From IMG/VR virus record IMGVR_UViG_3300044761_000059, positions 7,286 to 71,285 of that record: a stretch of 64,000 bases of DNA, one strand, 5' to 3'. Below, in pieces: positions 4,250 to 44,294 of the stretch. The stretch comes from a virus. The stretch's first letter is position 1, and every line of letters starts with the position of its first letter. Made by a program: the position numbers and the translations under genes. Under the pieces are notes generated by a model. That model saw only the letters and a program-made list of their open reading frames with translations. It was not told the origin of the DNA and did not search any database.

Positions 4250-7156
4250 CTACACGTACCGCCCCGTGAAGGGATCCACCAGCGCCCGGGTCTGGCTCTG
4301 GAGGACCTTCTGCCAGTTCTCCACGGACGAGAACCGCGCGCGCATGACCTCCCCCGTATTCGCCGCCCCGCTGGGCCCGGCGCCTGCTGCCCACGCCGCC
4401 TCGAACCCACGGTTCAGGATCCGGAGGGCCTCCGAGTAGTAGTCCAGCCCGTCCCGCGCGTAGAGGGTCATGTCCCCGATGAACTCCTTCTCAAAGAGGG
4501 CCACGGCCTCCTCGCAGTGGGCCAGGACCTCCGCGGTGATCCGGCCCCCGCTCTGCTCCAGCTTGTAGCGGGACAGGTGGATGAGGTCCCGGAGCCAGAG
4601 GAACTTCCCGAGGGTCCGCTCCGGGTAGGCCCGTCGGTCCGCGACCATGAGCCCGATGTTGCGGGCGAACTTCTTCCGCCGGACCTCCTCGACCAGGTAC
4701 CCGTCGTGCGCGATGTCCAGGTCGCTCAGGAGGAGGCAGGGCGTCACGCTGTGGTTGATCGCGGTCTCCGGGTGCTCGTGGATCTTCCCGAAGAAGCGGA
4801 TCCCGAGCCCGTTCCGGAAGACCCGGATCGGCAGATCCGGCTTGAAGGCGTTCGGGGGCACGGCCGAGAAGTGGTGCTGCCGGACGCCGTAGCCGTTGTA
4901 GCAGTTCCGCCGGAGGTACTTCGCCAGGTTGTTGGGGCGGAGGAGCTCCTCGTCCGTGTCCAGCCACAGGATCCAGTCGCAGCCGGCCGCCTGGACAGAG
5001 GTGTTGCGCGGGCCCTCGAAGCCGAAAGGCTCATGGGCGACCTCCGCGAAGTGCTCGGAGGGCATGGCCTTGCCGCAGGGCAGGCACCAGTGGGGCGGCC
5101 GCTCCTCCAGGATCTTCGCGCCGAAGGCCCGGGCGAGCTCGATCGTCCGATCCGTAGACCCCTGATCCACCACGATAATCTCGTCGGCCAGTTCCCGGAC
5201 GCTCTGGAGCGCCCGGATGAAGAGGGCCTCCGAGTTGAAGGTGATGAAGCAGGCCGAGAGGGTCTGCCGCTTCAGGGACGGCTTCGCCGCGGGGAGCGCC
5301 GGCGTCCAGGCGTGGAGGGCCTCCAACCATTCGGGCCGCCAGTGCCGGCGGTGGATCTCCGCCCAGGAGAGGGCCGCCTCGGGGTCGGCGAGCATGGCCT
5401 CGCGCTGGGCGTGCTGGCCCTCCTCGTCCAGGAGGGTGGCGGTCAGGCAGTCGACGTAGACCGCGTGGTCCCCGGCCCGCACGCCGTGGCGGACGGTGTC
5501 CCGGAGGGCCATGGTCGGGACGACGACCGGGATCGCCCCGAGGCGCTGCGCCTTCACGGCCACCAGGCAGAAGCGCTCCCCCCCGGTGCAGGGGTACGCC
5601 CAGACGGCCGCCTCGAGGTAGGGCGTGGGGTCGTCCGGGAGGCCCCCCGGCCGCAGCGTGATCCCGGGCTGGGCGAGCCGCTGGAGGAGGTCCCCCTTCC
5701 ACCGGGCCGCCTCGAGGTTCCCCGCGGTGATCTGGTCGAAGAGCCACCAGTCGTGCCAGACGTGCAGCTCGGCGTCCGGGACCCGCTCCCGGATCTCCGC
5801 CCAGTGGTCCAGGAGGAAGGCCAGGCCGCGGTCCGGGGAGCTCGCGTAGACCATCCGGTGCGGCGGCCGCCAGGGGTCCCGCGTGGCCGCCAGGATCCCG
5901 TCCGGGACGCCGAAGGGGACCGTGGCCACCTTCTCCTCCTGCAACCCGGGGTTGAGTTTCCTCAACTCGTGGTTGTGCCAGGGGGAGATGGCCATGATCC
6001 GGTGGATCCGCTCGAGGCGGGTCGGCGTGAGGTCCTCGGGGCCGTTCGGGTCGGCCGTCCAGTAGAGCACCCGCCGGGCCGCGATCGGGCGGTCCAGGGC
6101 CTGGGGCCACTTGACCACCACCACGACGTCCCGGGGCTCGTCCGGCCGGAAGGCCGCGTGGGGGAGGTACCGGACCGGGCCGGGGGGGGCCGGGGCCCCC
6201 TCGGGGGGGTTGTGGAAGACCTCGACCTCATGCCCGGCCCCGGCCAGGGTCCGGGCCAGCTCAATGACTCCCTCCTCGCTCCCCCGGAAGGTCCGGGGAT
6301 CCTCGGGGGTCCAGCCGGTCCCGACCGGGTTCACGACGAAGGCCGTCCGGGGGCGCCGGTAGCACAGGACCCGCTCCCGGTGGGCGCCGGCGTCCAGGAT
6401 CTCGTGGCCGTCCACCGCCCGCTCCCCCAGGAGACCCAGGACGTCCTCCTCGGCCAGACAGCGGAGGTGCTCCCGGGCCTCATGGGCGTTCCCCTCATGG
6501 GGCACCGGGCTGGCTGGGGTGGTCAGGTAGACGCGGCCGCCTGGCGCCAGGTGGCGCTCGGCCGCGGCCAGCGCGGCACTGGGATCCAGGACGTGCTCCA
6601 GAACTTCCATCAGGAGCACCGCGTCAAAGACCTCCCCGATCCCGAAGTCCTCCAGGAGGCTCGACACGAAGGCCGCCTGGATCCCCAGGGTCTCCGCGCT
6701 CCTGGCGGCGTGGGCCATGGCCTCCCGGTCCACGTCCACGCCCATGCCGGTGGCCCCGAAGGCGTGGCAGAGGTTCAGGAGGGCGAACCCGTCGAAGCAG
6801 CCCAGGTCCAGGATCCGGGCCGGGGGCTTGGCCGCCATCCAGGTCCGGATCCTGGCCAGCCGCGGGATCTGCTCGTGCCGCCGGGGGATCGCCTCGGCGG
6901 GGAGGTGGACCCGGCGGTGACCCTGGTAGAAGGCTCTGTAGGCCTCCGGGCTGGCGGTGTGGGCCAGCCAGTCCTCCAGCTCCAGCTCCAGGCCCTCCAG
7001 GCCGGGGAGGGAGGGTTCCGTGGCCCTGAGCCCCGCCAGGGCCGTCCTGGCGGCCAGTGGCTGGTCGGCCCAAAGGAGGGCCCGGATCTCGGCAAGCCTG
7101 GGATCCTGGAGGGTCTCGGGGAGGTAGGAGTGAACCAGCGTGTGTGGATCAGGCAT
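4250..7156 (-). CDS. three-domain fusion: class I SAM methyltransferase + GT4 glycosyltransferase + GT2 glycosyltransferase
   Basis: ILDLGCFDG and EVLEHV (MTase); GSEEGV, YASSPDRGL, ERFCLVAVKAQ (GT-B/GT4); IIVVDQGSTDRT, WILWLDTDE, GKIHE (GT-A/GT2). Confidence 0.9.
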   Translation of the reverse strand: MPDPHTLVHSYLPETLQDPRLAEIRALLWADQPLAARTALAGLRATEPSLPGLEGLELELEDWLAHTASPEAYRAFYQGHRRVHLPAEAIPRRHEQIPRLARIRTWMAAKPPARILDLGCFDGFALLNLCHAFGATGMGVDVDREAMAHAARSAETLGIQAAFVSSLLEDFGIGEVFDAVLLMEVLEHVLDPSAALAAAERHLAPGGRVYLTTPASPVPHEGNAHEAREHLRCLAEEDVLGLLGERAVDGHEILDAGAHRERVLCYRRPRTAFVVNPVGTGWTPEDPRTFRGSEEGVIELARTLAGAGHEVEVFHNPPEGAPAPPGPVRYLPHAAFRPDEPRDVVVVVKWPQALDRPIAARRVLYWTADPNGPEDLTPTRLERIHRIMAISPWHNHELRKLNPGLQEEKVATVPFGVPDGILAATRDPWRPPHRMVYASSPDRGLAFLLDHWAEIRERVPDAELHVWHDWWLFDQITAGNLEAARWKGDLLQRLAQPGITLRPGGLPDDPTPYLEAAVWAYPCTGGERFCLVAVKAQRLGAIPVVVPTMALRDTVRHGVRAGDHAVYVDCLTATLLDEEGQHAQREAMLADPEAALSWAEIHRRHWRPEWLEALHAWTPALPAAKPSLKRQTLSACFITFNSEALFIRALQSVRELADEIIVVDQGSTDRTIELARAFGAKILEERPPHWCLPCGKAMPSEHFAEVAHEPFGFEGPRNTSVQAAGCDWILWLDTDEELLRPNNLAKYLRRNCYNGYGVRQHHFSAVPPNAFKPDLPIRVFRNGLGIRFFGKIHEHPETAINHSVTPCLLLSDLDIAHDGYLVEEVRRKKFARNIGLMVADRRAYPERTLGKFLWLRDLIHLSRYKLEQSGGRITAEVLAHCEEAVALFEKEFIGDMTLYARDGLDYYSEALRILNRGFEAAWAAGAGPSGAANTGEVMRARFSSVENWQKVLQSQTRALVDPFTGRYV

Positions 7157-8363
7157 GCGCCAGCGCCTCCTCCTTGACCAGGCCCCCCACCAGGGCCTCC
7201 CATTCCGCCGCCACCCCATCCCAGTCCAGGGCCTTGGCGGCTTCCATGCCGGCCCGGGACGCCGCCGCCCAGGCCTCCGGGTCCCGGAGCAGGCGCAGGC
7301 AGGCTCGCACGAAGACCTCCTGGTAGTACGGGCTCCGGGCGCCCTTCTGCGGATCGAAGAGCTCCATCCCTGGCATCCGCCAGGAGCCGTCCGCCTGGGC
7401 CACGGCGCCGCCCACGCCGAGCTCCTTGAGCGCCTTCCCGGGCTCAGACGGGTGGCCGACCAGGACGCCGGCCCCGGGGGAGACGGTCTCCGTCAGGGCC
7501 GCCAGGTCCGAGGCGACAATCGGGAGGCCGACCGCCATGCACTCCATCGCCGTGATGCAGCTGATCTCCTCGAAGTCCGTCGGGTAGATGTAGAGGGCGG
7601 CGGTCTTGTAGAGCTTGTAGAGGTCCTGCTTGCTCAACGGCCCCAGGTGCCGCACCCGGCCGGCGAAACGGTCGATCAGGCGCTGGCACTTGTCGTAGAG
7701 GGGCCGGAGGAAGTCCGGGTAGTTGGCGTAGCCCGCGAGGTACAGGCGCAGTTCCGGGTCCTCCCGCAGGAGCCGCGGGAAGGTGTCCTCGAGCAGGATG
7801 TCCATCCCCCGCTCGGGGCGCGCGGTGAAGACCAGCGCCTTCATGTCCCGGGTGCCCTCCGGCGGCCCGGGCGCCGCCTCGAGCATCCGGAGGTCGATCC
7901 CGTTCCGGGTCACGTGGAGGGCGCTGTCCGGCAAGCCGTAGACGTTCTGGTACTGGCGCTTCATGAACTGAGAGAGGACCATGACCCGGTCACACGCCCA
8001 GAGGATCCCCCGCATGGGGTCGGCCGTGCGCTTCAGTGCCAGGTCGTGGACCCAGAGGAGCCGGACCGGGGCGGCGATCGGGAGGGTCAGCGGATGGGGG
8101 ACGCGCTGGACGACCGCGACGTCGTGGGTGACATTGGTGGTCCACTCGATGTAGTGCTGGATCCCGTGGTACCGGACCCCGTCGTAGGCGGCCTCCTTGT
8201 CCGTCCGGCAGAAGAGGTGGACCTCGTGGCCCCGGGCGACCAGCGCCCGAGCCAGGTGGAGCCCAGCGGTCTCGGATCCGCCGAGGGACTTCAGCTCGGG
8301 GGCGGCGCCGTCGAAACTCATGCCATCTACGAAAAATGTCCAGCGTAGGCGCTCAGGGTTCAC
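7149..8363 (-). CDS. GT4-family glycosyltransferase
   Basis: LGGSETA, VTRNGID, RPERGMD, YPTDFEEISCITAMECMAVGLP; GTG start overlaps upstream stop (GTGA). Confidence 0.9.
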   Translation of the reverse strand: MNPERLRWTFFVDGMSFDGAAPELKSLGGSETAGLHLARALVARGHEVHLFCRTDKEAAYDGVRYHGIQHYIEWTTNVTHDVAVVQRVPHPLTLPIAAPVRLLWVHDLALKRTADPMRGILWACDRVMVLSQFMKRQYQNVYGLPDSALHVTRNGIDLRMLEAAPGPPEGTRDMKALVFTARPERGMDILLEDTFPRLLREDPELRLYLAGYANYPDFLRPLYDKCQRLIDRFAGRVRHLGPLSKQDLYKLYKTAALYIYPTDFEEISCITAMECMAVGLPIVASDLAALTETVSPGAGVLVGHPSEPGKALKELGVGGAVAQADGSWRMPGMELFDPQKGARSPYYQEVFVRACLRLLRDPEAWAAASRAGMEAAKALDWDGVAAEWEALVGGLVKEEALAHA

Positions 8364-8809
8364 GCGATGTTTTTGGCGGCCACAAGGGCACTTCTTTCCC
8401 GCTCGTGCGGGCATTCGCCGTAGAAGCCGATCGCCATGTTGCAGTTGTGGCAGAGCACTCGGAAGATCGGGGGGAAGCCGTTCCGAATCGCCCAGCGGTA
8501 AGCCCTGGCTCCGCCACGGCCCACTCCAGACGAGCGCCGATGCTCATTGCCGTTCCCGTCGATATGGTCAAGGGCGAGGAATTCGAGCCGATCTTCGCCG
8601 CAGCATCGGCACGCGGGGGCGCCGCCGGAGTAATGGCTTAGGACGCGAAGCCTCATCCGTTGATAGGTCGCCGGGCCGTAAACCTCCCGGGTCATCTGCG
8701 CCGTGCAGTCCTTGCACCAAGAGTAGCGCCCGTCCCTGGATCGCGTGACCGGCACCGGGTAGAAGTCGCCCATCGGTTTCTCGGTCTTGCAATGGGCGCA
8801 TCTCTTCAT
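8360..8809 (-). CDS. HNH (EndoVII-like) endonuclease with N-terminal Zn finger
   Basis: MKRCAHCK...WCKDC, CRCCGE...LALDHIDG...RVLCHNCN. Confidence 0.85.
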   Translation of the reverse strand: MKRCAHCKTEKPMGDFYPVPVTRSRDGRYSWCKDCTAQMTREVYGPATYQRMRLRVLSHYSGGAPACRCCGEDRLEFLALDHIDGNGNEHRRSSGVGRGGARAYRWAIRNGFPPIFRVLCHNCNMAIGFYGECPHERERSALVAAKNIA

Positions 8810-28947: not shown

Positions 28948-29507
28948 TCGGGGCCTCCTTTCAGTTTCTCCCAAAAGGACAACTGCGCCAGGTACTGGGT
29001 GAGGTCCTCGCTCGAGGCCACGATGATGTCGGGGATCTCCTGGGCCATCAACCGAATGTCGTAAGGCTTGAACCAGCATCCCTTGCCAGGGTCATCGTTG
29101 TTCCGCTTTTTGGGGATCTCCGAGTGGCGCCAATTGTACTCGCACCACTCCGGAACGCGGACAAGGTACCACGGATCGATCTCCCCCTCGCGGGGATCCT
29201 CAGCTGTGGTGTGCCCATAGAACATGACGTCCGCCCAACCCCGGTGGAATTTCGGGAATTCCGTCTCGCCGCCGGTTTCGCGGTCTATTGTCACCGTTAT
29301 GTCCCACCAGAACGGTTCCCGATAATCCGGAGTCCGGACCCGGCAGGCAACACGGCACTCGCGGCCTTCGAAGAGGATCATGTCCGCCCCGTGCTTCCGG
29401 TCCTCCTCGGGGGAGACCTCCATAAACAGGCGGGGCGCGAAGATTTGCACCATGCGTGGGATCCATCGTCGCTGCCAGGCGTAGGACGTCTCGAACATCG
29501 TCCTCAT
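28944..29507 (-). CDS. putative PD-(D/E)xK-like nuclease next to MT-A70
   Basis: EEDRKHGADMI...VACRVR...TEFPK...D.MFYG; coupled to the methyltransferase gene. Confidence 0.5.
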   Translation of the reverse strand: MRTMFETSYAWQRRWIPRMVQIFAPRLFMEVSPEEDRKHGADMILFEGRECRVACRVRTPDYREPFWWDITVTIDRETGGETEFPKFHRGWADVMFYGHTTAEDPREGEIDPWYLVRVPEWCEYNWRHSEIPKKRNNDDPGKGCWFKPYDIRLMAQEIPDIIVASSEDLTQYLAQLSFWEKLKGGPE

Positions 29508-30454
29508 CGATGCGGCACTCCCCACGGCTCGAAGCCCTCGCGGGCCTCGTCGAACATCGTAAGACGAAGGCGTCCCTCCGGGCCCTCCGGGCTCACCCGT
29601 CGGACGAGGTCGAAGAATTCATCGGGCTTATGGGAATGCCGCTGTTGCGGTGCGCGAAAACTCGTCGGGGTCCCCTTGACCACAGGGGCCAGCGATTTCA
29701 CTTTCCCGAAGAGGATGTGCTCGGTCGTATGGGCCCACCAAAGCGGCTGCGCGGTGGGCTTGATCCATGTCAGCACACATTCGTATCGCACTCCCCAGGC
29801 CCTGAAGAGGCGCAACCCGTAAGGCAGGAAACGGTGTGTGACCCACAGGTAGATGTGGGCTCCGTGGGTGTCCGCCAGCTTGCGGATCGGGAGTTCGCGG
29901 ATCTGCTTGAGGGTCCAGACTGAGTAATCCATCGTGCGCCGCTCGACGGGCCTGCGCTCGTCGAAACCGATCTTGGTCATGGGCCAGGGAGGGTCAATGA
30001 CGATTGTCCGAAAGGGGCCCTTGGGGAATTCGGGAATTCCTTCCACGGCAACCGGCGGGCGAGCCAGTGCATAGAGGTAGCCCAAGGTTATCGACTGGCC
30101 GACGTCGGTCCGCATGGCCACCGCCTCCCGGATCTTCGCTTCGCCGAGGCGGGTGAGGGATTGCCACCGCTGGGCGACGGAGTGGGCGACCTCACTTCGG
30201 CCCAGCGTGGGCCGAAGTCCTAACCCCTCTTTTCCTTGGGCTTTCGGGATCCCGTCCACCAGCTCCCCGCCGCGGACGAGGACGAGGGCGCGGGTGAGGA
30301 CGATGCGATTACGGGTGGGGAGATCGAAGTTGTGAGCCCGGGCCCAGCGCTCGAGTGTGCCCAGCTCCCCATCGGTTGTTTTCACCTCGGGAATCGTCTG
30401 AATCGTGGCGATGCGGCGCTCGGCCCGGCTCAGTACGGCGAGTTTGTTTTTCAC
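29504..30454 (-). CDS. MT-A70 family adenine methyltransferase
   Basis: FRTIVIDPPW, YLWVT, LTWIK, TEHILFG, HSHKPDEF. Confidence 0.9.
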   Translation of the reverse strand: MKNKLAVLSRAERRIATIQTIPEVKTTDGELGTLERWARAHNFDLPTRNRIVLTRALVLVRGGELVDGIPKAQGKEGLGLRPTLGRSEVAHSVAQRWQSLTRLGEAKIREAVAMRTDVGQSITLGYLYALARPPVAVEGIPEFPKGPFRTIVIDPPWPMTKIGFDERRPVERRTMDYSVWTLKQIRELPIRKLADTHGAHIYLWVTHRFLPYGLRLFRAWGVRYECVLTWIKPTAQPLWWAHTTEHILFGKVKSLAPVVKGTPTSFRAPQQRHSHKPDEFFDLVRRVSPEGPEGRLRLTMFDEAREGFEPWGVPHR

Positions 30455-31026
30455 GCGAACGCCTCCCCCGCCGCCCGGGCCGCCTCCGCCGGCCGCCCGA
30501 TCCTTCGCGCGTGCTCCGCGAGGAGCAGCGCCTCCGCCGCCCCGTCGTGGTCTTTCCGCGCTCTCGGCGTCAGCCGCAGGTTCACGCCCGGGAAGAGCCG
30601 CTGCGCCACCAGGACCGCCGCCCCCTTCGCGCTCCCCACGTCCCGGAGCATCGCCTTCTTCCACGTCGCCGGGTGGACGCACGCATAGGGGATCCCGAGG
30701 CCCGTGAGGGCCATCTGCCAGGCCCCGTACCCGAGGCCGTAGTTGAACATGCCGACGGCGCCGCTGGCGCGGGGCTCCCCCCCCGCCTTCGGCCGGGGCG
30801 GGATCGCGCGGGCCAGCTCGAGGGCGCAGAACGCCTCGACCCCGGTCGCCGCCACGGTCGTCGCCTCCTGGAGGAGGTCCCACATGGCGCGGAGGTCCGG
30901 GACCCGGACGGTCCGCTTGCCCCGCCGGATCAGGGTCACCGGCGCCGGCCAGACGCGCGGCGGCTCCCCGGGCGCGAGCCGGGCGACGGCCCCGTGGACG
31001 CCGGGGTCGATCCCGAGGTAGATCAT
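30451..31026 (-). CDS. RuvC-like Holliday junction resolvase
   Basis: YLGIDPG, MFNYG..YG, PATWKK, DHDGAAEALLLA. Confidence 0.85.
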   Translation of the reverse strand: MIYLGIDPGVHGAVARLAPGEPPRVWPAPVTLIRRGKRTVRVPDLRAMWDLLQEATTVAATGVEAFCALELARAIPPRPKAGGEPRASGAVGMFNYGLGYGAWQMALTGLGIPYACVHPATWKKAMLRDVGSAKGAAVLVAQRLFPGVNLRLTPRARKDHDGAAEALLLAEHARRIGRPAEAARAAGEAFA

Positions 31027-32626: not shown

Positions 32627-33676
32627 TCAGAGAAGTACCCCTTGCCGCGTCCGCTTTCTCGCCATCGCCAGGTACTCCATCTTCAAGTCGAGTCCGATCC
32701 CCGTGCGCCCCAGCTCCTGCGCGACGAGGACGGCGGTGCCGGAGCCGCAGAACGGGTCGAGCACAATGTCGCCCTCTCGGCTCCCGGCCTTCACGCACGG
32801 TTCCACCAGCGCCCTCGGAAACGTGGCGAAGTGAGCCTCGGGGAAGGGCTCCGTGGCGATCTCCCAAACCGTGCGGCGGTTGCGCGTTCCCAGCAGCGCG
32901 AGGGCGTGCCGCGCGGCTACGCTCCGCGCGACACCGTCCTTGCCGTGCGGAGCCTGGCCGACGTGATGCTCGTCCCGGGCGATGGTGTAGCGAGTGTCGA
33001 GGCCCTGTGCCTGCTCCCGGATCCGGCGCGTCCGTTCCTGTTCTTCCTGCGGCTCCTTGATCGCCTCCTGGTCGTAGTAGTAGCGGGCCGCCTTGCTCAA
33101 TAGGAAGAGGTACTCGTGGCTTTTGGTGGGCCGATCCTCCACGCTCTCCGGCATCGGGTTCGGCTTGGACCAGATAATGTCGCTCCGCACCCACCAGCCG
33201 TCGGCCTGGAGGGCGAAGGCGACGCGCCAGGGCATACCCACGAGGTCTTTGGGCTTGAGGCCGATATCGCGCTCGTGCTCGCCTTGGCGTCCAGGGTTGC
33301 CAGAGCCGGGACGGTTGCCGCCGCCGCCTGTAAAGTTTCGGCCCGCGTCATTGCGGCCGAGGGTCGTGCTGCCACCGTACGTGTCCCCCATGTTCAGCCA
33401 AAGCGTCCCGTCCTTCCGTAGTACCCTTCGCACCTCACGGAAAATTTCCACGAGGTGCTGAACGTAGAGCTCGGGCGTGGGCTCGAGGCCGAGGGAGCCG
33501 CGCCAGGCGGGGCAGCGGAGGCAAAGGGCACTCGTCCATCGAGGCCGGCGTTCCTGCCCAGGCGGAGCACCATCGAGCGTAGAGCCCAGAAGGGCCACCT
33601 CCGCGTCGAGAAGCCGCAGCTTCCCAAGTAATCCTCGCAGTTCTGCCACGCCGTCCCTGCTTGGCAGCCGGCTCAT
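32627..33676 (-). CDS. N4/N6 DNA methyltransferase lacking the N-terminal catalytic SPPY motif
   Basis: LGLEPTP...RVLRKDGTLWLNMGD, WSKPNPMPES, HFATFP, VLDPFCGSGT present; no (S/D)PPY upstream. Confidence 0.75.
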   Translation of the reverse strand: MSRLPSRDGVAELRGLLGKLRLLDAEVALLGSTLDGAPPGQERRPRWTSALCLRCPAWRGSLGLEPTPELYVQHLVEIFREVRRVLRKDGTLWLNMGDTYGGSTTLGRNDAGRNFTGGGGNRPGSGNPGRQGEHERDIGLKPKDLVGMPWRVAFALQADGWWVRSDIIWSKPNPMPESVEDRPTKSHEYLFLLSKAARYYYDQEAIKEPQEEQERTRRIREQAQGLDTRYTIARDEHHVGQAPHGKDGVARSVAARHALALLGTRNRRTVWEIATEPFPEAHFATFPRALVEPCVKAGSREGDIVLDPFCGSGTAVLVAQELGRTGIGLDLKMEYLAMARKRTRQGVLL

Positions 33677-38496: not shown

Positions 38497-38677
38497 CCCT
38501 ACTCCACCCGCGGGGCCAGGTGGCGGTTCAGGATGTCCTGGAGGCGCACCGGGAGATGCCGCTTCACGCGGTCGAGGAGCTTGAGGGCCTCGGGGGACTC
38601 GTACCAGTTCGCCGCGGCCAGGTAGGCCGTGGCCACGAGGAGCATCCGCTCGAGGCGGCGGCAACGGGGGCAGCCCG

Positions 38678-38932
38678 TCACTCGCTCAGGAACAGGACCC
38701 GCGTCTCCGGGGTGGTCGGCCATCGCCCCCTCTCCCGCCGGAACGCCCGGCGGAACCGCATGTAGCCCATGAAGCAGAGCCGGCACGCCCAGGGGATCCC
38801 CGCCCGCATCCAGCGCGGGAAGGCGTCGCGGGGCAGGTCCCGTTCGCAGCAGGCGCAGCGGGTCAGGCCGTGCCGCCGGCGCCTGGGCGACCAGATCCAC
38901 AGCCGCCGCCCGTCCGCCGTGAGGCCCTCCAT
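38678..38932 (-). CDS. small Zn-finger protein
   Basis: CACC...CRLC; directly downstream of the RAMP-like gene. Confidence 0.5.
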   Translation of the reverse strand: MEGLTADGRRLWIWSPRRRRHGLTRCACCERDLPRDAFPRWMRAGIPWACRLCFMGYMRFRRAFRRERGRWPTTPETRVLFLSE

Positions 38933-38936
38933 GGGA

Positions 38937-39644
38937 TCACTCCGACTTCGTGAACTTGCCGTAGCCCCGCGGGCGGGCGGCGCCCAGGCCCTGGGCCTCG
39001 GCCATCTCCCACAGGTCCGTCCAGATCTCCTGGGTCAGGATCCGCGTGTCGGGCCACCGGGCGGCGAACTCCAGCTCCCAGGGCAGGAGGTAGTCGTACC
39101 GCCGCAGCACGGAACGGCGCCCGGCCCGGTCCTGCACGGAGCTCCCCCACTCGAGCGTCCCGGTGGGGATGGTGGGCTCCGCGCCGGCGCTCCGCAGGAT
39201 GAGCAGCGGGCTGCCGGGGGCGCCCTGGTGGGCCTGGAGGCCCCGGGTGAGGAGGTCCTTCAGCCCCCTCGTCTTTCTCGACAGGCCGAGGGTCGTCGCG
39301 CAGTCAATGAGCATGCTCGGGATCTGGTGGGCCCCCAGGCAGAGCAGGCCCTCCGGGTTGCGGCGGAAGCCGCAGGAGACCTTCTCCTCGTCCATGAGTT
39401 CGTCGACCTCCTCCCCGACGGCTTCGGCCTGGGCCTCCGCGGCCGCGCCCGTTTCGGGGGGCGCGACTCCCATCGCCGCCAGGTTCTCGGCGACGATCCG
39501 CTCGGGATCACGCCCCAGGGCTTTCGCCTTGAGGCGGACGGCCTTCGAGCTCATCTGCCCGCGAATCAAATCTTCGGTCTTGGGCATTCCGCCGAGGAGT
39601 TCCGTGACGCCGACCAGGACGATCTTCTTCGTGATCCAGTTCAT
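38937..39644 (-). CDS. stand-alone Cas7/RAMP-like protein (Vipr-like), 235 aa
   Basis: AGGAGG RBS near 39651-39656; N-terminal strand IVLVGVTELLGG, F.R..EG.L.L.AHQI..ML, C-terminal glycine-rich loop GLGAARPRGYGKF characteristic of RAMPs. Confidence 0.75.
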   Translation of the reverse strand: MNWITKKIVLVGVTELLGGMPKTEDLIRGQMSSKAVRLKAKALGRDPERIVAENLAAMGVAPPETGAAAEAQAEAVGEEVDELMDEEKVSCGFRRNPEGLLCLGAHQIPSMLIDCATTLGLSRKTRGLKDLLTRGLQAHQGAPGSPLLILRSAGAEPTIPTGTLEWGSSVQDRAGRRSVLRRYDYLLPWELEFAARWPDTRILTQEIWTDLWEMAEAQGLGAARPRGYGKFTKSE

Positions 39645-39660
39645 TGGGATCCTCCTTTTT

Positions 39661-40745
39661 GGTTTGTCGCAGAGGGCAGGCCAGAACAGGCAGGGCTCGT
39701 CGCAATGGGAGGGTTCGGCTCGACGTGGTTTGACGGGGCATGTCGCAGGGGCTTGGCGCGACCGGGCACGGCCGGACAGGACGCGGCTTGTCGCAGTGGC
39801 TCGGCGTGGCGCGGCCAGTCGCAGTGGCGGACCGATGTGGACCGTCGCAGCGGCTCGGGGAGTGCCGGGGTGACCGGGCGTGGCACGTCGCATGGGCGGG
39901 GGAGGGCAGGCTCGATTCGACTCGGCTCGGCTCGTCGCAGCGGCTTGGGGAGACCCGCGGGGGGCGGAGGTGGCGGGGGCCGTCGCGCTGGTGTGGCATG
40001 GCTCGCGCGGGCGGGAGTCGACTCGGCTGGTCGCATGGGGCAGGCGGGGAGGGGCCGGTAGCAGCGGTCGGGCTCGGGTCGGGTCGGACTCGGGGGGGTC
40101 TGGCTCGTCGCAAGGGCTTGGGTGGAGTTGGGGTGGGTCGTCGCAGCGGCTCGGGTTGGGATGGCCTGGCCAGTCGCATGGGTTTGGGCGGGGCGGGGTT
40201 GGGTCGTCGCAGCGGGATGGCGTGGCTCGAGTCGTCGCAGCGGAATGGAGCGCTTCGCGGTGACACGGCTGGTCGCAGCGGGTCGGCTCGGGTCGGGTCG
40301 GCGTGGGTAGTCGCAACGGGAAGGAGCGGCCCGGGAGGGGAGGGTTTGTCGCGGCGATCTGGCAGGGCTCGGCTTGGTCCGGGGCGGCCTGTCGCATCGG
40401 GTTGGAAGGGCTCGGCACGGCATGTCGCAGAGGCTCGGGCTGGCGAGCGTAGGCTTGTCGCATCGGGGCGGGCGGGCTCGGGCCGGGAGGGGCGGGGTAG
40501 TCGCACGGGCTCGGGCAGGCCAGCTGGGGCTTGTCGCAGCGGCAGGGATCGGTCTGGGATGGCTCGTCGCAGCGGCTCGGGCGGGATAGGCTCGACTTGT
40601 CGCATGGGGGCGGGACGGCGCGGGCGCGGACTGTCGCAGCGGCCAGGCTGGGCACGCTCGGGGTCGGCTTGTCGCAAGGGGTCGGCGTGGCCCGGGCGGA
40701 AATGACGGGGCGGGGCTTGGGTGGGGTTGTCGCAACGGGGCGGCA
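39661..40745. repeat. periodic guide-like array: 29 GTCGCA-NN delimiters separated by 4-10 G(G/A)N-NN pentamers (putative non-coding RNA)
   Basis: delimiter spacings counted by hand: 33,43,48,28,26,43,47,48,48,28,49,33,33,33,28,38,38,38,43,33,33,43,33,33,33,34,38,58; 24/28 equal 8+5n. Confidence 0.9.
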
Positions 40746-42560
40746 TCAGGCGCTCCGGTCGGGGAACAATTCGTCCGCCGCCCGGACCTGGCCGGGCGCC
40801 GGGTAGTGGAGGAGGCCCAGAGTGGAGAGCTCGCCGACGACCTTGGCGTAGGCCCCCCCGCCGTGCTCGTAGTGGGCCAGGCGAGCCAGCTCCGCCCGGG
40901 CCACCTCCTCCGGCCAAGCCTTGACCAGGGGCTCCAGGATCCGGAGGTGGCGGGGCTTGAGCTTCGCCCGCCAGATGGCCATGACCCACTCGTGGGTGGG
41001 CGCCCCGGCGAGCTCCAGGGCCCCCACGGCCGCCTGGCCCCGGTCGGTCAGGTTCATGGTGGCCACCGCCGGGTACCGGATCCAGCCGCCCGTGTTGAGC
41101 TCCCCGACGACCTTGGCGAAGGCCCCGCCCCCGGCCGAGTACCCGGTGGCCAGGGCGATCGCCCCCCTGCCGGGCGCCTGGCGGCCCAGGGAGGCAAACA
41201 TGGCCAGGGCCCGGAGGATCTTCATGTGGCGCTCCCCCAGGCCCTCCGGGGGGGGGCTCAGGGGCCCTGGGCGGCCCCCCGGGGGCGACGTGGCCTCCGG
41301 TCGGGGGGACGGGCCGGGGCGTCGCGGCCGCCGGCCCGGGGGCCGCCTGCAGGGCCCTGGGCGCCGTCAGGAAGGGCTTGGGAGGGGTCTCCAGGGGCTC
41401 CAGGGCGCCCTTGGCCCGCTCCAGGTGGGCCACGGCCCTCACGGTGGCCTCGGCCAGCCGTTCCCAGGCTCCCCACAGTTGGCGCAGGGAGGCGTCCCGA
41501 TCCCGGAGCAGCTCCCGGAGCTTCCGCTCGGCCTCGGCCCGGGTCCGCCGGTCGTCGGTCTCGACGTCCGCCAGGGCGTGCTTCGCGGCCGCCTGGCCGG
41601 CCTCCCGGGCCCGGGCCAGTTCGGCCTGGAGGGTGGCCACCTGGCGGCGGAGCTCCCGGGGGTCCTCCGCTCGGGCCCGCTCGATCGTGGCGGCCATCCG
41701 CTTGCGGATCGCCCCGAGGTCCACGTCGGCCAGGGTCGCCGGCGGCCGCTTGCCCTTGACCTCCTTCGGGGTGGCGGCGCTGTCGAAGGTCTCCCGGAGC
41801 CGGAAACGCACCCGCTTCAGGGCCTTCAGCCAGTGGGGCGACCAGACCCAGGCCTCCCCGTCGTCCAGGCCGGGCAGGGATTCCAGGAGCTCGAGGCTCT
41901 GTCCGTGGTGCTCGACCCATCCCTGGATCGCCTTCCGGTCCTGGGGGGAGGTGGTCCGGAGGACCACGAGGGTCTCGATCTGCGTCAGGACGTTCTTTGT
42001 TGAGGGCGGCCGACCGTTGGGTGATCATGGTGATCCCCAGGCCAACGCTGGCGGCCGCGGCGGACGACGTTCTCCCAGGCCCGGACCAGGCGGGCCTGCT
42101 CCCGGAAGGGGCGCTGGGGGGCGTAGTCGTCGGCCTCCTCGAGGAAGAGGTGGAGCGGGTCCTCGTTGCGCCGGTAAAGGCGCTCGGCGAAGTCGATCAG
42201 GAAGCGGGTCTTGTCCCCTTCGCTGAACTCGAACAGGCTCAGGACGCAGGAGAGCCGCTCGTCCACGACCAGGTCGGCGAGCAACTGGCCTCCCGTCCGC
42301 TCGAGGGGGACGTCCCCGTGCTTCCCGCCGAAGACCGGGATCGGGAGGCCGGGGCCCTTCCCGTCGGCCGAGGAGCGCAGTCCCCACCAGGCGTCCACCG
42401 GGTCGATCACCACGAAGGGGAGGCCGGCCCGGTGCATCTCCTCGGCCATCACGACCGCGGTGTTGGTCTTGCCGGCGCCGCGCTTGGCGAGGATCCCGAA
42501 GGTCTGAGTGATGGCGTCGGCCGGGAGGGTGAGGCCCTCGGCGACGTGGAGCTTCCTCAT
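40746..42560 (-). CDS. HerA/FtsK-like (DUF87-type) ATPase with C-terminal winged-helix repeats; three apparent frameshifts
   Basis: AKRGAGKT Walker A, VIDP, LFLEEAD Walker B, RRGR..GLGITMITQR; frame breaks near 42044, 41996 and 41250. Confidence 0.75.
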
Positions 42561-42760
42561 TCCCCTCTCAGCGCCATGAGGACCTGGTTGTGGCCGATCC
42601 CCTCCTCGACGACGAGGGCCTCGAAGGCCTCCTCCCCGTAGGCGGGGGCGTGCCCGTGGCGCTCCCGCTCCATGTTCGCCGCGACCATGCCGAAGGCCCG
42701 GATCAGGGCCCGGGAGACGGCGGCGTGGACGAAGGCAGCGCGGCCGGCTTCGGTCTCCAT
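42557..42760 (-). CDS. small hypothetical protein
   Basis: GMVAANMER...APAYGEEAF; coupled on both sides. Confidence 0.55.
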   Translation of the reverse strand: METEAGRAAFVHAAVSRALIRAFGMVAANMERERHGHAPAYGEEAFEALVVEEGIGHNQVLMALRGE

Positions 42761-44294
42761 CACTTCTTCCCCTTCTTGGCGGCCTTCTTCGGCTTGGCCG
42801 GCTCGCGCTGGAGGGCGGCCGTATCGATCCGGTTACCGCTTCGCCAGCGCCAGGACGTCCTTCTTCCGGTCGTCGTAGCCGCCGATGTCCAGCACCCGGA
42901 CGAGGCTGAGCTCGACGAGGATCCGGCCCGAGCTCGGCCGGCGCCATCTCGCCGAGCTTCTTCTGGGCGATCTGCAGGTGATCCTGGGACCCCGCCGGCC
43001 GGCCCTTCTCCGGGATCCAGCCGTGCCGCCGCATCACGCGGACGCGGTTTTCATGCCAGACCTCCTGCATGTAGGCGGGCGCCACGCGCGAGAGCTCAGC
43101 CAGCCCGAGCGTCGGCGGGACCTTGGCCAGGACCGCGTCCAGAAGCCGGCCCCGGTGCGCGAGCTCCGCCCGGTGCCGGCGGTGGGCCTCCTTCTGGCGG
43201 GCCTTCTCCCGGGGGTTGGGGCCAGGGATCCGGGACATCCCGTGGCCGTGGACCTTACAGCTGGGCTCGGCGCAGATCTTCACCACCTGTCCTCGGCCCT
43301 GGCCGCCCACCACCAGGCCGGCCTTCGCGTGGGCGCAGCCCTTGCCCTTGGCCTCCGTCCACCGCTGCGGGTCCAAGGGCCCCTTCGGGTCCCGCCGGCC
43401 GGTGTACTCCCGGGAGATCTCCACGAAGGCGGTGCCCTTCGCCTTGAGGCCCGCCCGGGCCCGGGCGAGGTGGGCGTCGATCTTCTGGCCGAAGCAGGCC
43501 CGGTCGGTGCAGGTGTCCTTCTTGGCGATGTCGGGGAAGAGGTCCGGGACGAAGCCGGTCCGCTTCGGGCAGGTCGTGCAGGGGCCGGCCGCCGGCACCA
43601 GGGTGGCGTCGTCCTTCTTCCAGGGGGCGGCCGCCAGGTCCAGGTGGACGTTCTCGGCGATCCAGATCCCGAGCTCCCGGACGGTGACGAGGGCCTTCGC
43701 CTGCCCCCGGGGCTTGCGCCACCGCCCTTCCCCCTCGAAGCACTCCTCCAGGGCCTCCTTCTGGTACTTCGGCTGGAGGCGCGCGATCTGGACGGCGTGC
43801 CCCTCCGTGATCGTGTCGGCCCCGAAGGCCTCGGCCGCCTCGGGGACCAGGTCCGCGAGCTTCAGCTTCTGGTAGACGTAGCTCGCCGACTTCTTGACCT
43901 TGTCCGCGATCGCGGGGACGTCGTAGCCGGCCTCCTTCATCAGGCGCCGGTACCCGTCCGCCTCGTCCAGGGGGTGCATGTCCTGGCGGTGGACGTTCTC
44001 CACCAGGCCCATCTCGATGGCCTGCTGGTCCGTGAGCTCCCGCACGCTGCAGGGCACGTCCGGGAGCTTGGCGGCCTTCGCGGCGGCGAGCCGGCGGTGG
44101 CCGAACACGACCTCGAACTTCTTCCCGCCGTCGACCGGCCGGACGAGGAGGGGCTGCAGGACGCCGTGCGTCCGGACGCTGTCGGTCAGCTCCTCGAGGC
44201 GCTTGGGGTCCACCTGGCGGCGGGTGTTGAGCGGGCTCGGGCGCAGGCATTCGACGGGCAGGGGAACGGCGCTGACGGAGACCGCGGTGGCCAT
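42760..44294 (-). CDS. ParB/RepB/Spo0J-family protein (two apparent frameshifts near the C-terminus)
   Basis: PSPLNTR, LQPLLVRP, VFGHRRLAA, ENVHRQDMHPLDEA, HTH; C..CPKRTG...CTDRACF; frame breaks near 42928 and 42834. Confidence 0.85.

Follow-up and report, generated by a model that had tools for sequence, protein, structure and literature searches.

What kind of system is formed by a lone gene for a CRISPR RAMP-like protein and the 1.1-kb array of short, punctuated units that lies beside it? The question is raised by a 64-kb stretch of DNA (positions 7,286 to 71,285 of the IMG/VR virus record IMGVR_UViG_3300044761_000059, which is 71,285 b long and an estimated 87% complete), referred to here as the window. 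We conclude that the locus is a VIPR (Viral Interference Programmable Repeat) system, of a kind already known but with an unusual guide format, and plausibly a distinct VIPR subtype. We put the probability that it is a phage-encoded VIPR system of a divergent sub-branch, working by the mechanism proposed below, at roughly 85%.

VIPR systems, published in 2026, are CRISPR-related and combine a Vipr protein, related to CRISPR RAMPs, with guide RNAs (vrRNAs) that carry 9-16 YNNGG repeats and a structured 3' tail; the NN bases recognize double-stranded DNA of rival phages and satellites, skipping one base (bioRxiv 10.64898/2026.04.26.720920). Seven types are described in the same preprint, along with the alternative repeats NNNGG, YNNNG, and NNNNG and with arrays that are "staggered," ribozyme separated, or made up of single vrRNAs (10.64898/2026.04.26.720920). 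A preliminary description of the window, made from the sequence without database searches, had noted a resemblance to VIPR, and both the homology of the protein and the targets found under a 1-nucleotide (nt) skip prove it right. VIPR systems are characterized by a Vipr protein that is a minimal RAMP (RRM core, thumb, and G-loop), by small RNAs that are transcribed from the array and co-purify with Vipr, and by an accessory (vap) gene nearby with a DNA-interacting domain; most are carried by phages and proviruses, and competing mobile elements are their targets. To our knowledge, the field is only months old, and type II alone is understood mechanistically. The features on which the argument rests are as follows.

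38937..39644, minus strand: vipr-like gene encoding 235 amino acids (aa; protein P0001), with a C-terminal glycine-rich loop, GLGAARPRGYGKF; assigned from translation, homologues, and fold
39650..39657, minus strand: ribosome-binding site of the vipr-like gene, AAGGAGGA, 8 nt past the last hexamer; read directly
39666..40745, transcribed strand assigned to neither: guide array of 29 hexamer-punctuated units; assigned from delimiters, lattice, and shuffles
40746..41225, minus strand: co-directional upstream open reading frame (ORF) of 159 aa, without a family match, its stop codon abutting the array

The array occupies the entire gap between the stop codon of the 159-aa ORF and the ribosome-binding site of the vipr-like gene, as the preliminary description had stated. 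The "ATPase" that it placed at the other side of the gap did not hold up, since the adjoining ORF has no family match and the DUF87/HerA signal lies two genes upstream, in a 769-aa ParB-like ORF. On the plus strand, 29 matches to GT[CA]GC[AG] fall between 39666 and 40729 (GTCGCA 26 times, GTCGCG twice, and GTAGCA once), compared with a mean of 4.0 and a maximum of 11 in 1,000 first-order Markov shuffles of the array. There are 45 plus-strand copies of GTCGCA in the whole window, 26 of them within the array. The 28 intervals between delimiters measure 33 nt (nine), 43 nt (four), 38 nt (four), 48 nt (three), 28 nt (three), and 58 nt (one), so that 24 follow the form 8 + 5n (3 mod 5); this recount agrees with the count first reported, and its binomial P is 1.5e-13 at p = 0.2. 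The remaining four intervals (26, 47, 49, and 34 nt) are irregular, and from the unit listing each of these units appears to contain one internal indel of 1-2 nt.

Regular units consist of the hexamer, two bases, and then 4-10 pentamers, giving 143 pentamers in 24 units. All 143 pentamers start with G (143/143); position 2 holds G 117 times and A 18 times, position 3 holds C 72 times, G 51 times, T 11 times, and A 9 times, and positions 4 and 5 are close to uniform in base use. Written on the plus strand, the array is GTCGCR-NN-(GGN-NN)n; on the gene strand, it is YGCGAC-NN-(NCC-NN)n. The strict GGY repeat form is not seen, with a pyrimidine at position 3 in 83/143 pentamers, and the related consensus NNNGG fits. 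Because the period is 5 and the unit lengths are not multiples of 3, we ruled out a coding sequence. Rfam returned no family for the array (at E<=1, there were two sub-threshold chance matches, both outside it), and the flanks of 98 delimiters from six records showed no conserved pairing partners. A structured 3' tail such as that of type II is absent, the constant element between units being only 6 nt. The claim that this is not CRISPR also stands: no repeat of at least 20 nt alternates with spacers in the array, as it would in CRISPR-Cas class 1, and a Pfam scan of 30 ORFs of the window found no Cas family.

The 24 sequencing runs listed, from sediment or freshwater, were all of DNA. Four DNA sequencing runs over the array gave fragmented contigs, among them one low-depth variant contig, with no joints seen. 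The variant contig, from run X7, has nine listed differences from the window at 40335-40446, in two adjacent units; six fall at pentamer positions 4-5, two at position 3, and one at position 2, and neither position 1 nor any hexamer is affected. The contig hints that another version of the array exists alongside this one in the habitat.

The relationship of the 235-aa protein to known families is visible at the level of profiles and structures. As a single sequence, it had no match in Pfam, NCBIfam, or PADLOC, only matches with E>0.1 in PHROGs, none among PDB sequences, and none by tblastn against 50,697 phage records. Its close relatives number 19, nearly all metagenomic, and 477 wider relatives were found at E<=0.001 among 1.84 billion cluster representatives. 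We built profiles from the close family (A1), from 114 wider relatives (A2), and from 35 aligned members of the SUSP1 Vipr family (A4); the last was drawn from 529 proteins at E<=1e-5, starting from phage SUSP1 (KT454805.2), in which the GGY repeats and vipr were located. An A1 search of genome contigs yielded no relatives, and neither did a search of viral contigs with protein P0022. The A2 profile did not match SUSP1 Vipr in the SUSP1 genome, and profile-profile comparison was therefore needed. By hhalign, A2 aligned to A4 with a probability of 96.3% (E 2e-9; 144 columns, from helix 1 to the G-loop) and A1 to A4 with a probability of 93.5%. Identity to SUSP1 Vipr over the aligned columns is only ~16%. 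In our reading of the hhalign alignment, R224-P225-R226 corresponds to SUSP1 R179-P180-R181. Against PDB sequences, the A1 profile touches 36pp_D ("SUSP1 Vipr protein") at the G-loop with E 0.15, and the A2 profile touches the G-loops of Csm4 with E 0.02-0.2.

Structure prediction followed by Foldseek, which the preliminary description had proposed as a check, points the same way. The AlphaFold2 model (pLDDT 76.7, pTM 0.68, residues 61-88 disordered) gave 45 PDB matches at E<=0.001, and the top matches listed were all chains of CRISPR type III and type VII effectors (Csm3, type VII Cas7, Csm4, and Cmr; TMq 0.31-0.46). No Vipr entry was among the matches listed, in a PDB copy that ends at 2026-04-08. 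The best structural matches were to the Cas7 backbone (Csm3 and type VII Cas7; 9g9j_D and 9j9e_D1), with which the modeled protein would have in common its RRM core, its G-rich loop, and its binding to a guide RNA at regular intervals; the window differs in having a period of 5 nt rather than 6 nt, a noncontiguous guide code, and no repeat-spacer array. For the ESM Atlas entry of the protein, the nearest clusters are unnamed viral proteins with query-normalized TM values of 0.69-0.74. Profiles and predicted fold together place the 235-aa protein among the Vipr/Cas7-like RAMPs, as a homologue of SUSP1 Vipr and its family, and the lone RAMP-like protein of the preliminary description is thereby borne out.

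The preliminary description had also taken the variable dinucleotides for a gapped target code. We joined the dinucleotide after the hexamer to pentamer positions 4-5 with 0-3 skipped bases, tried three-base readings as well, and compared 74 guides from six virus records with those same records (257 kb, arrays masked). A first scan, over all the sequence collected for this analysis, had already singled out the 1-nt skip as the only rule with outstanding matches; skip-0, skip-2, and three-base readings with 0 or 1 skip did not rise above chance. Among the 74 guides, four matches under the 1-nt skip reached 16 or more read bases with no more than one mismatch, all of them in vipr genes; ten shuffles yielded 0.0 such matches and the other readings 0. 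The skip-3 and 3-read/2-skip settings re-find only the arrays themselves and were set aside. The naive expectation for a 16/16 match in vipr genes is 2e-4, and in both vipr target sites the skipped bases are codon position 3, the wobble position. By this comparison of sequences, the published read-two-skip-one rule alone yields natural targets. The guides and sites concerned are given here.

39699..39741: guide unit #1, 7 pentamers and 16 read bases; target, codons 20-27 (MPKTEDLI) of rival vipr, antisense strand
39565..39587, minus strand: own-gene counterpart of the unit #1 target, matching at 15/16 read bases, with the mismatch at Leu26 (TTG; CTN in sister phages)
39583..39611, minus strand: site matched by the first guide of sister phage L001, codons 12-21 of the window vipr, 19/20
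39934..39981: guide unit #7, 8 pentamers, near-identical in L001

Rival phages had been suggested as targets, and unit #1 fits this well. It matches 16/16 on the vipr genes of L001, L003, and L007/L008 and 15/16 on those of L002, L005, L006, and the window itself. Nine vipr gene copies were compared for this unit, and because the dinucleotide that follows the hexamer matches in every one, it is read; the unit is therefore best written GTC + (GCR-NN) + (GGN-NN)n. Neighboring units do not continue the unit #1 target, which suggests that units act singly. Position 3 of the pentamer is not read and does not track the skipped target base (3/7 on L007 and 2/7 on L001). In the other direction, the first guide of L001 matches 19/20 on the window vipr, 18/20 on that of L007, and 17/20 on its own gene. 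Thus, as far as sequence matching can tell, at least one window guide is aimed at conserved N-terminal vipr codons of sister phages, and a sister aims back.

The codons at Leu16, Leu17, and Leu26 are CTC CTC TTG in the window, TTG CTC CTC in L001, and CTC TTG CTG in L003. Each phage has one TTG at a different Leu position, and the guides of its rivals expect CTN there. Of the five Leu codon-family switches between the window and L001, two fall in the two target sites, which is a small sample. The window's own vipr would appear to escape through a synonymous switch of Leu codon family, which would require discrimination of a single mismatch.

Searches beyond the six records gave less. An IMG/VR scan with the unit #1 pattern returned 34 matches, of which one, the contig of L001, is real; we discarded the other 33 as chance, as they have no Vipr homologue and 32 lie in contigs of 26-52% G+C. 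Unit #7 has three exact IMG/VR matches (L059-L061), all in one homologous 133-aa ORF at AFEPGRVGP and with the skips on wobble positions. We consider this ORF a candidate target only, because about one chance match is expected (a rough estimate, for a G+C-rich pattern). The site lies at 1501-1526 of L059-L061, from three related contigs of 39-143 kb with 58% G+C, and the ORF adjoins a gene with an Lcl C-terminal domain.

Homologues with neighboring periodic arrays were a further expectation, and with one exception, taken up below, they were found. Arrays with the hexamer and 8 + 5n spacing lie directly upstream of the homologue in L001 (96% identity), L003 (94%), L002 (63%), and L006 (57%) and likewise in L021, a distant relative (A1 profile E 3e-16). 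The L001 array has 20 hexamers with 15/19 intervals regular, and that of L002 has nine hexamers with 7/8 regular; the layout of the ribosome-binding site next to the last hexamer is the same in both as in the window. The variable bases differ between the arrays of homologous loci. Unit content seems to turn over fast, since only one unit (39934 in the window) is near-identical in the window and L001. Searching IMG/VR with a hexamer plus five GG pentamers retrieved five stretches, two of them in the contigs of L001 and L002. More remote relatives carry their array downstream of the gene, namely, L019 (gene-strand CGCGAC, 10/13 intervals being 3 mod 5), L020/G005, and the Microcystis phage Mae-JY09 (PP395641.1). 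Wider-family relatives also occur in gut "Bacteriophage sp." records (L077-L079), with G-periodic 5-nt arrays on the gene strand and weak GCAAY-like punctuation.

L076 3744-4105 (PP395641.1 38492-38853): array of Mae-JY09
L077 3597-3879 (MT835513), L078 3657-4096 (MT835520), and L079 2554-2836 (MT835477), gene strand: gut-phage arrays

Mae-JY09 is a cultured cyanophage whose array, with xCGAC words and NCC-NN pentamers on the gene strand, follows its last gene. A 12-bp hairpin (L076 4131-4160) stands past the array, and then the genome ends; 3/66 annotated genes are on the other strand. Its seven regular guides had no target above shuffles in the sequences scanned, and a literature search found no publication naming this phage.

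Which strand of the array serves as the guide? In the window, GTCGCA and GG stand on the strand opposite to the vipr-like gene, a point that the preliminary description did not make. In all nine loci with xCGAC-punctuated arrays (six upstream and three downstream), vipr and both of its neighbors are encoded on the other strand from the G-rich one. In SUSP1, the GGY repeats share the strand of vipr, whether they lie upstream or downstream of the genes. We lean slightly toward the gene strand. In its full form, to which we give an even chance, this means that the guide is a gene-strand transcript: this branch of Vipr would clamp a pyrimidine motif (NCC, the last C invariant), and guides with a 6-nt YGCGAC tail would be cut from the leader or trailer of the vipr operon mRNA. 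The arrays abut stop codons on one side and ribosome-binding sites on the other, and the C-rich strand is transcribed anyway, because the mRNA of vipr, which must start in or beyond the array, or that of the next gene has to cross it. With the gene strand as the guide, a constant 3' element would end each guide, as in type II.

The alternative, which we hold to be a serious contender at somewhat less than even odds, is the same VIPR system with the G-rich plus strand as the guide, antisense to vipr: 5'-GTCGCR-NN-(GGN-NN)n, whose 5' handle would be 8 nt long and whose guanines would be clamped in the canonical way. It would keep guanine recognition and need no change of protein chemistry. The conservation of the pentamer (G in 143/143, then G or A in 135/143, then C over G, then NN) follows the order of GGY/NN, and NNNGG repeats are a known alternative (10.64898/2026.04.26.720920). 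SUSP1 and the superfamily relatives L077-L079 also have G-periodic arrays; in these, however, the arrays are on the gene strand, whereas a G-rich guide would run opposite to vipr and the flanking genes in every one of the nine loci. Its antisense promoter would have to lie within a gene, and not within the same one from locus to locus, and a scan of 38500-42200 for sigma-70 promoters and intrinsic terminators found 0 and 0. We also tried homology of the gut-phage delimiters (GCAAC-like words) as a strand marker and dropped it, as there were only four to eight copies with inconsistent spacing. Given the gene-strand arrays of L077-L079, both strand arrangements exist within one protein superfamily. 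Either answer must depart from the model system, through antisense arrays or through a complementary fixed motif.

With the gene strand slightly preferred, the mechanism that we propose is common to both. By homology with SUSP1 Vipr, the protein would polymerize on the array RNA with one protomer per five bases, as the preliminary description had proposed, each protomer clamping the fixed part of a pentamer and exposing the two variable bases. The read bases, namely, the dinucleotide after the hexamer and pentamer positions 4-5, would pair with double-stranded DNA with every third base skipped, so that transcription of the target would be silenced. Unit boundaries would be marked by the hexamer, GTCGCR or, on the gene strand, YGCGAC, which would add three bases to the lattice. 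It may stand in for the long structured tail found on type II vrRNAs, marking either where the RNA is processed, as the preliminary description had supposed, or where the filament starts or stops. RNA expression, processing at the hexamer, filament assembly, and silencing are all steps that we infer.

It is also conceivable, but in our estimate improbable, that the guide matching vipr serves autoregulation and not warfare, with unit #1 binding the phage's own vipr and limiting Vipr expression. The own gene matches 94% of the read bases, above the 80% threshold used in target calling (10.64898/2026.04.26.720920). In both reciprocal cases, however, rivals are matched better than self (16/16 versus 15/16 and 19/20 versus 17/20), and the self mismatches are Leu codon-family switches, which are among the few synonymous changes visible to a code that skips the wobble position. 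Published vrRNA-targeting vrRNAs likewise match self less well than other phages, and solo vrRNAs of vipr-less (VIPR-null) SUSP1-like phages target early vipr codons in rivals (10.64898/2026.10.15.759431). The window guide resembles these solo vrRNAs in both respects; it differs in that it sits in the array of a phage with its own vipr, that the targeting is reciprocal between two sister phages, and that the window vipr would escape by the synonymous switch described above.

The 94% self-match is one of several points that weigh against reading the locus as a VIPR system that acts on rivals. SUSP1 H17, D177, and W178 read the two guanines (10.64898/2026.04.26.720927), and in our reading of the hhalign alignment these residues are not conserved, the corresponding positions being Gly19, Ala222, and Ala223. 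The position-3 pocket of SUSP1 Vipr excludes purines (10.64898/2026.04.26.720927), whereas position 3 is a purine in 60/143 window pentamers. Only 1/24 regular guides has a firm target and one a candidate, leaving 22 without, from a few scans for exact matches; units #27 and #8 gave nothing in exact IMG/VR scans, and the longest guide gave nothing against 185,579 species genomes. Regular guides read 10-22 bases, and those with 4-5 pentamers, reading 10-12, seem to read too few bases to single out one site in a bacterial genome. Beside the homologue of L007/L008, up to 1,023 nt of upstream sequence contain no array (the downstream side is off the contig), and the more distant loci have no accessory gene in common.

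Least probable by far is that the array acts as DNA, its GTCGCA sites being centromere-like or iteron-like sites for a ParB-like protein and its G-rich filler being of low complexity: a ParB-N/HTH protein is encoded two genes upstream and 29 copies of one hexamer do stand in direct orientation, but hexamer binding sites need no strict 5-nt lattice, invariant G, or hypervariable positions 4-5, the arrays travel with the vipr homologue and not with ParB (no ParB family among the tested neighbors in L002, L067, and L019), and, read by the VIPR rule, the variable bases find matches in rival genes.

Among known systems, the closest is type II VIPR of Escherichia phage SUSP1 (Vipr ALH47069.1, PDB 36pp). 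Both are phage encoded and have a small stand-alone RAMP-like protein with a conserved G-loop, an array in the gap between a co-directional upstream gene and vipr, and a 5-nt lattice with two read bases per unit and one target base skipped; in both, rival mobile elements are targets, and the skips fall on codon wobble positions, as reported for SUSP1 (10.64898/2026.04.26.720920). SUSP1 has four vrRNAs of ~100 nt, with 9-16 GGY/NN repeats and a 40- to 60-nt structured tail, whereas the window has 29 units of 4-10 repeats with the hexamer only. In addition, the window differs in the three guanine-reading residues and in a position 3 that is not restricted to pyrimidines, the GGY-like strand is the opposite strand rather than the gene strand, and no vap1 homologue was recognized at the window locus. 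VIPR arrays with alternative repeats resemble the window in having two fixed and three less constrained bases per pentamer, and "staggered," head-to-tail arrays resemble it in having no spacer, the end of one guide being the start of the next (10.64898/2026.04.26.720920). The text and legends of that preprint contain no mention of a GTCGCR hexamer, 8 + 5n unit lengths, or arrays antisense to vipr, and its figures or data S4 may show such a type (10.64898/2026.04.26.720920). TIGR-Tas, in which arrays with an 18-nt period lie beside a Nop-domain Tas protein (10.64898/2026.10.21.760802), does not correspond, as the window has a 5-nt period with 8 + 5n units and a RAMP-like protein.

Further features of the window concern the neighbors of the array and the phage as a whole.

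41985..44294, minus strand: ORF of 769 aa with ParB-N, ParB-HTH, and DUF87/HerA-like matches, two genes upstream of the array
29504-30883, 32627-33676, 4250-7219, and 7149-8414, all minus strand: methyltransferase and glycosyltransferase genes

The 769-aa ORF is a possible DNA-binding accessory (vap-like). Such an ORF is found in the window and in the contig of L001 but is not conserved in more distant loci; the other four records share no neighbor gene with them, and no DNA-binding family was found among 16 neighbors scanned from L002, L067, and L019. The upstream trio of ORFs at 40746-44294 on the minus strand (769, 256, and 159 aa) corresponds to a single 627-aa ORF in L001 (L062/G001, 614-2497), with 95% identity between its C-terminal end and the 159-aa ORF and 43-49% identity between its body and the 769-aa ORF. 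Either this gene region is split or it is rearranged in one of the two phages.

The window is from a phage, with Pfam matches to a Mu-like portal, MuF, a capsid E-like protein, a 1651-aa tail protein, two DNA methylases, and glycosyltransferases. The Mu-like portal (PF06074; 22491-24617, minus strand) carries a C-terminal ADP-ribosyltransferase exoenzyme domain (PF03496, E 4.6e-23) and may be a portal-fused enzyme that is possibly ejected. Two DNA methyltransferases (MT-A70 and N6_N4_Mtase) are encoded, and a 989-aa methyltransferase-glycosyltransferase fusion adjoins a GT4 glycosyltransferase; these enzymes may serve in DNA or surface modification.

The guide format described here is compact, a hexamer and 4-10 pentamers packing ~28 guides into 1.1 kb, and it would offer tool builders something simpler than the 100-nt vrRNAs of type II: guides of 28-58 nt that lack a structured tail. 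A cultured member, Mae-JY09, opens the branch to experiment. Should the guide be the G strand, the branch would still be unusual, as every array would have to run antisense to the operon, from promoters embedded in genes. If the gene strand is the guide, a mirror-image vrRNA grammar would exist in at least three deep lineages (the window clade, L019, and Mae-JY09), and the fixed-base pocket of Vipr would be re-specifiable while the 2-read/1-skip code is kept. In either case, the read-two-skip-one rule would extend to a branch only ~16% identical to SUSP1 Vipr, and the guides of sister phages that target each other's vipr, with apparent escape through Leu codon-family switches, would be the signature of an arms race.

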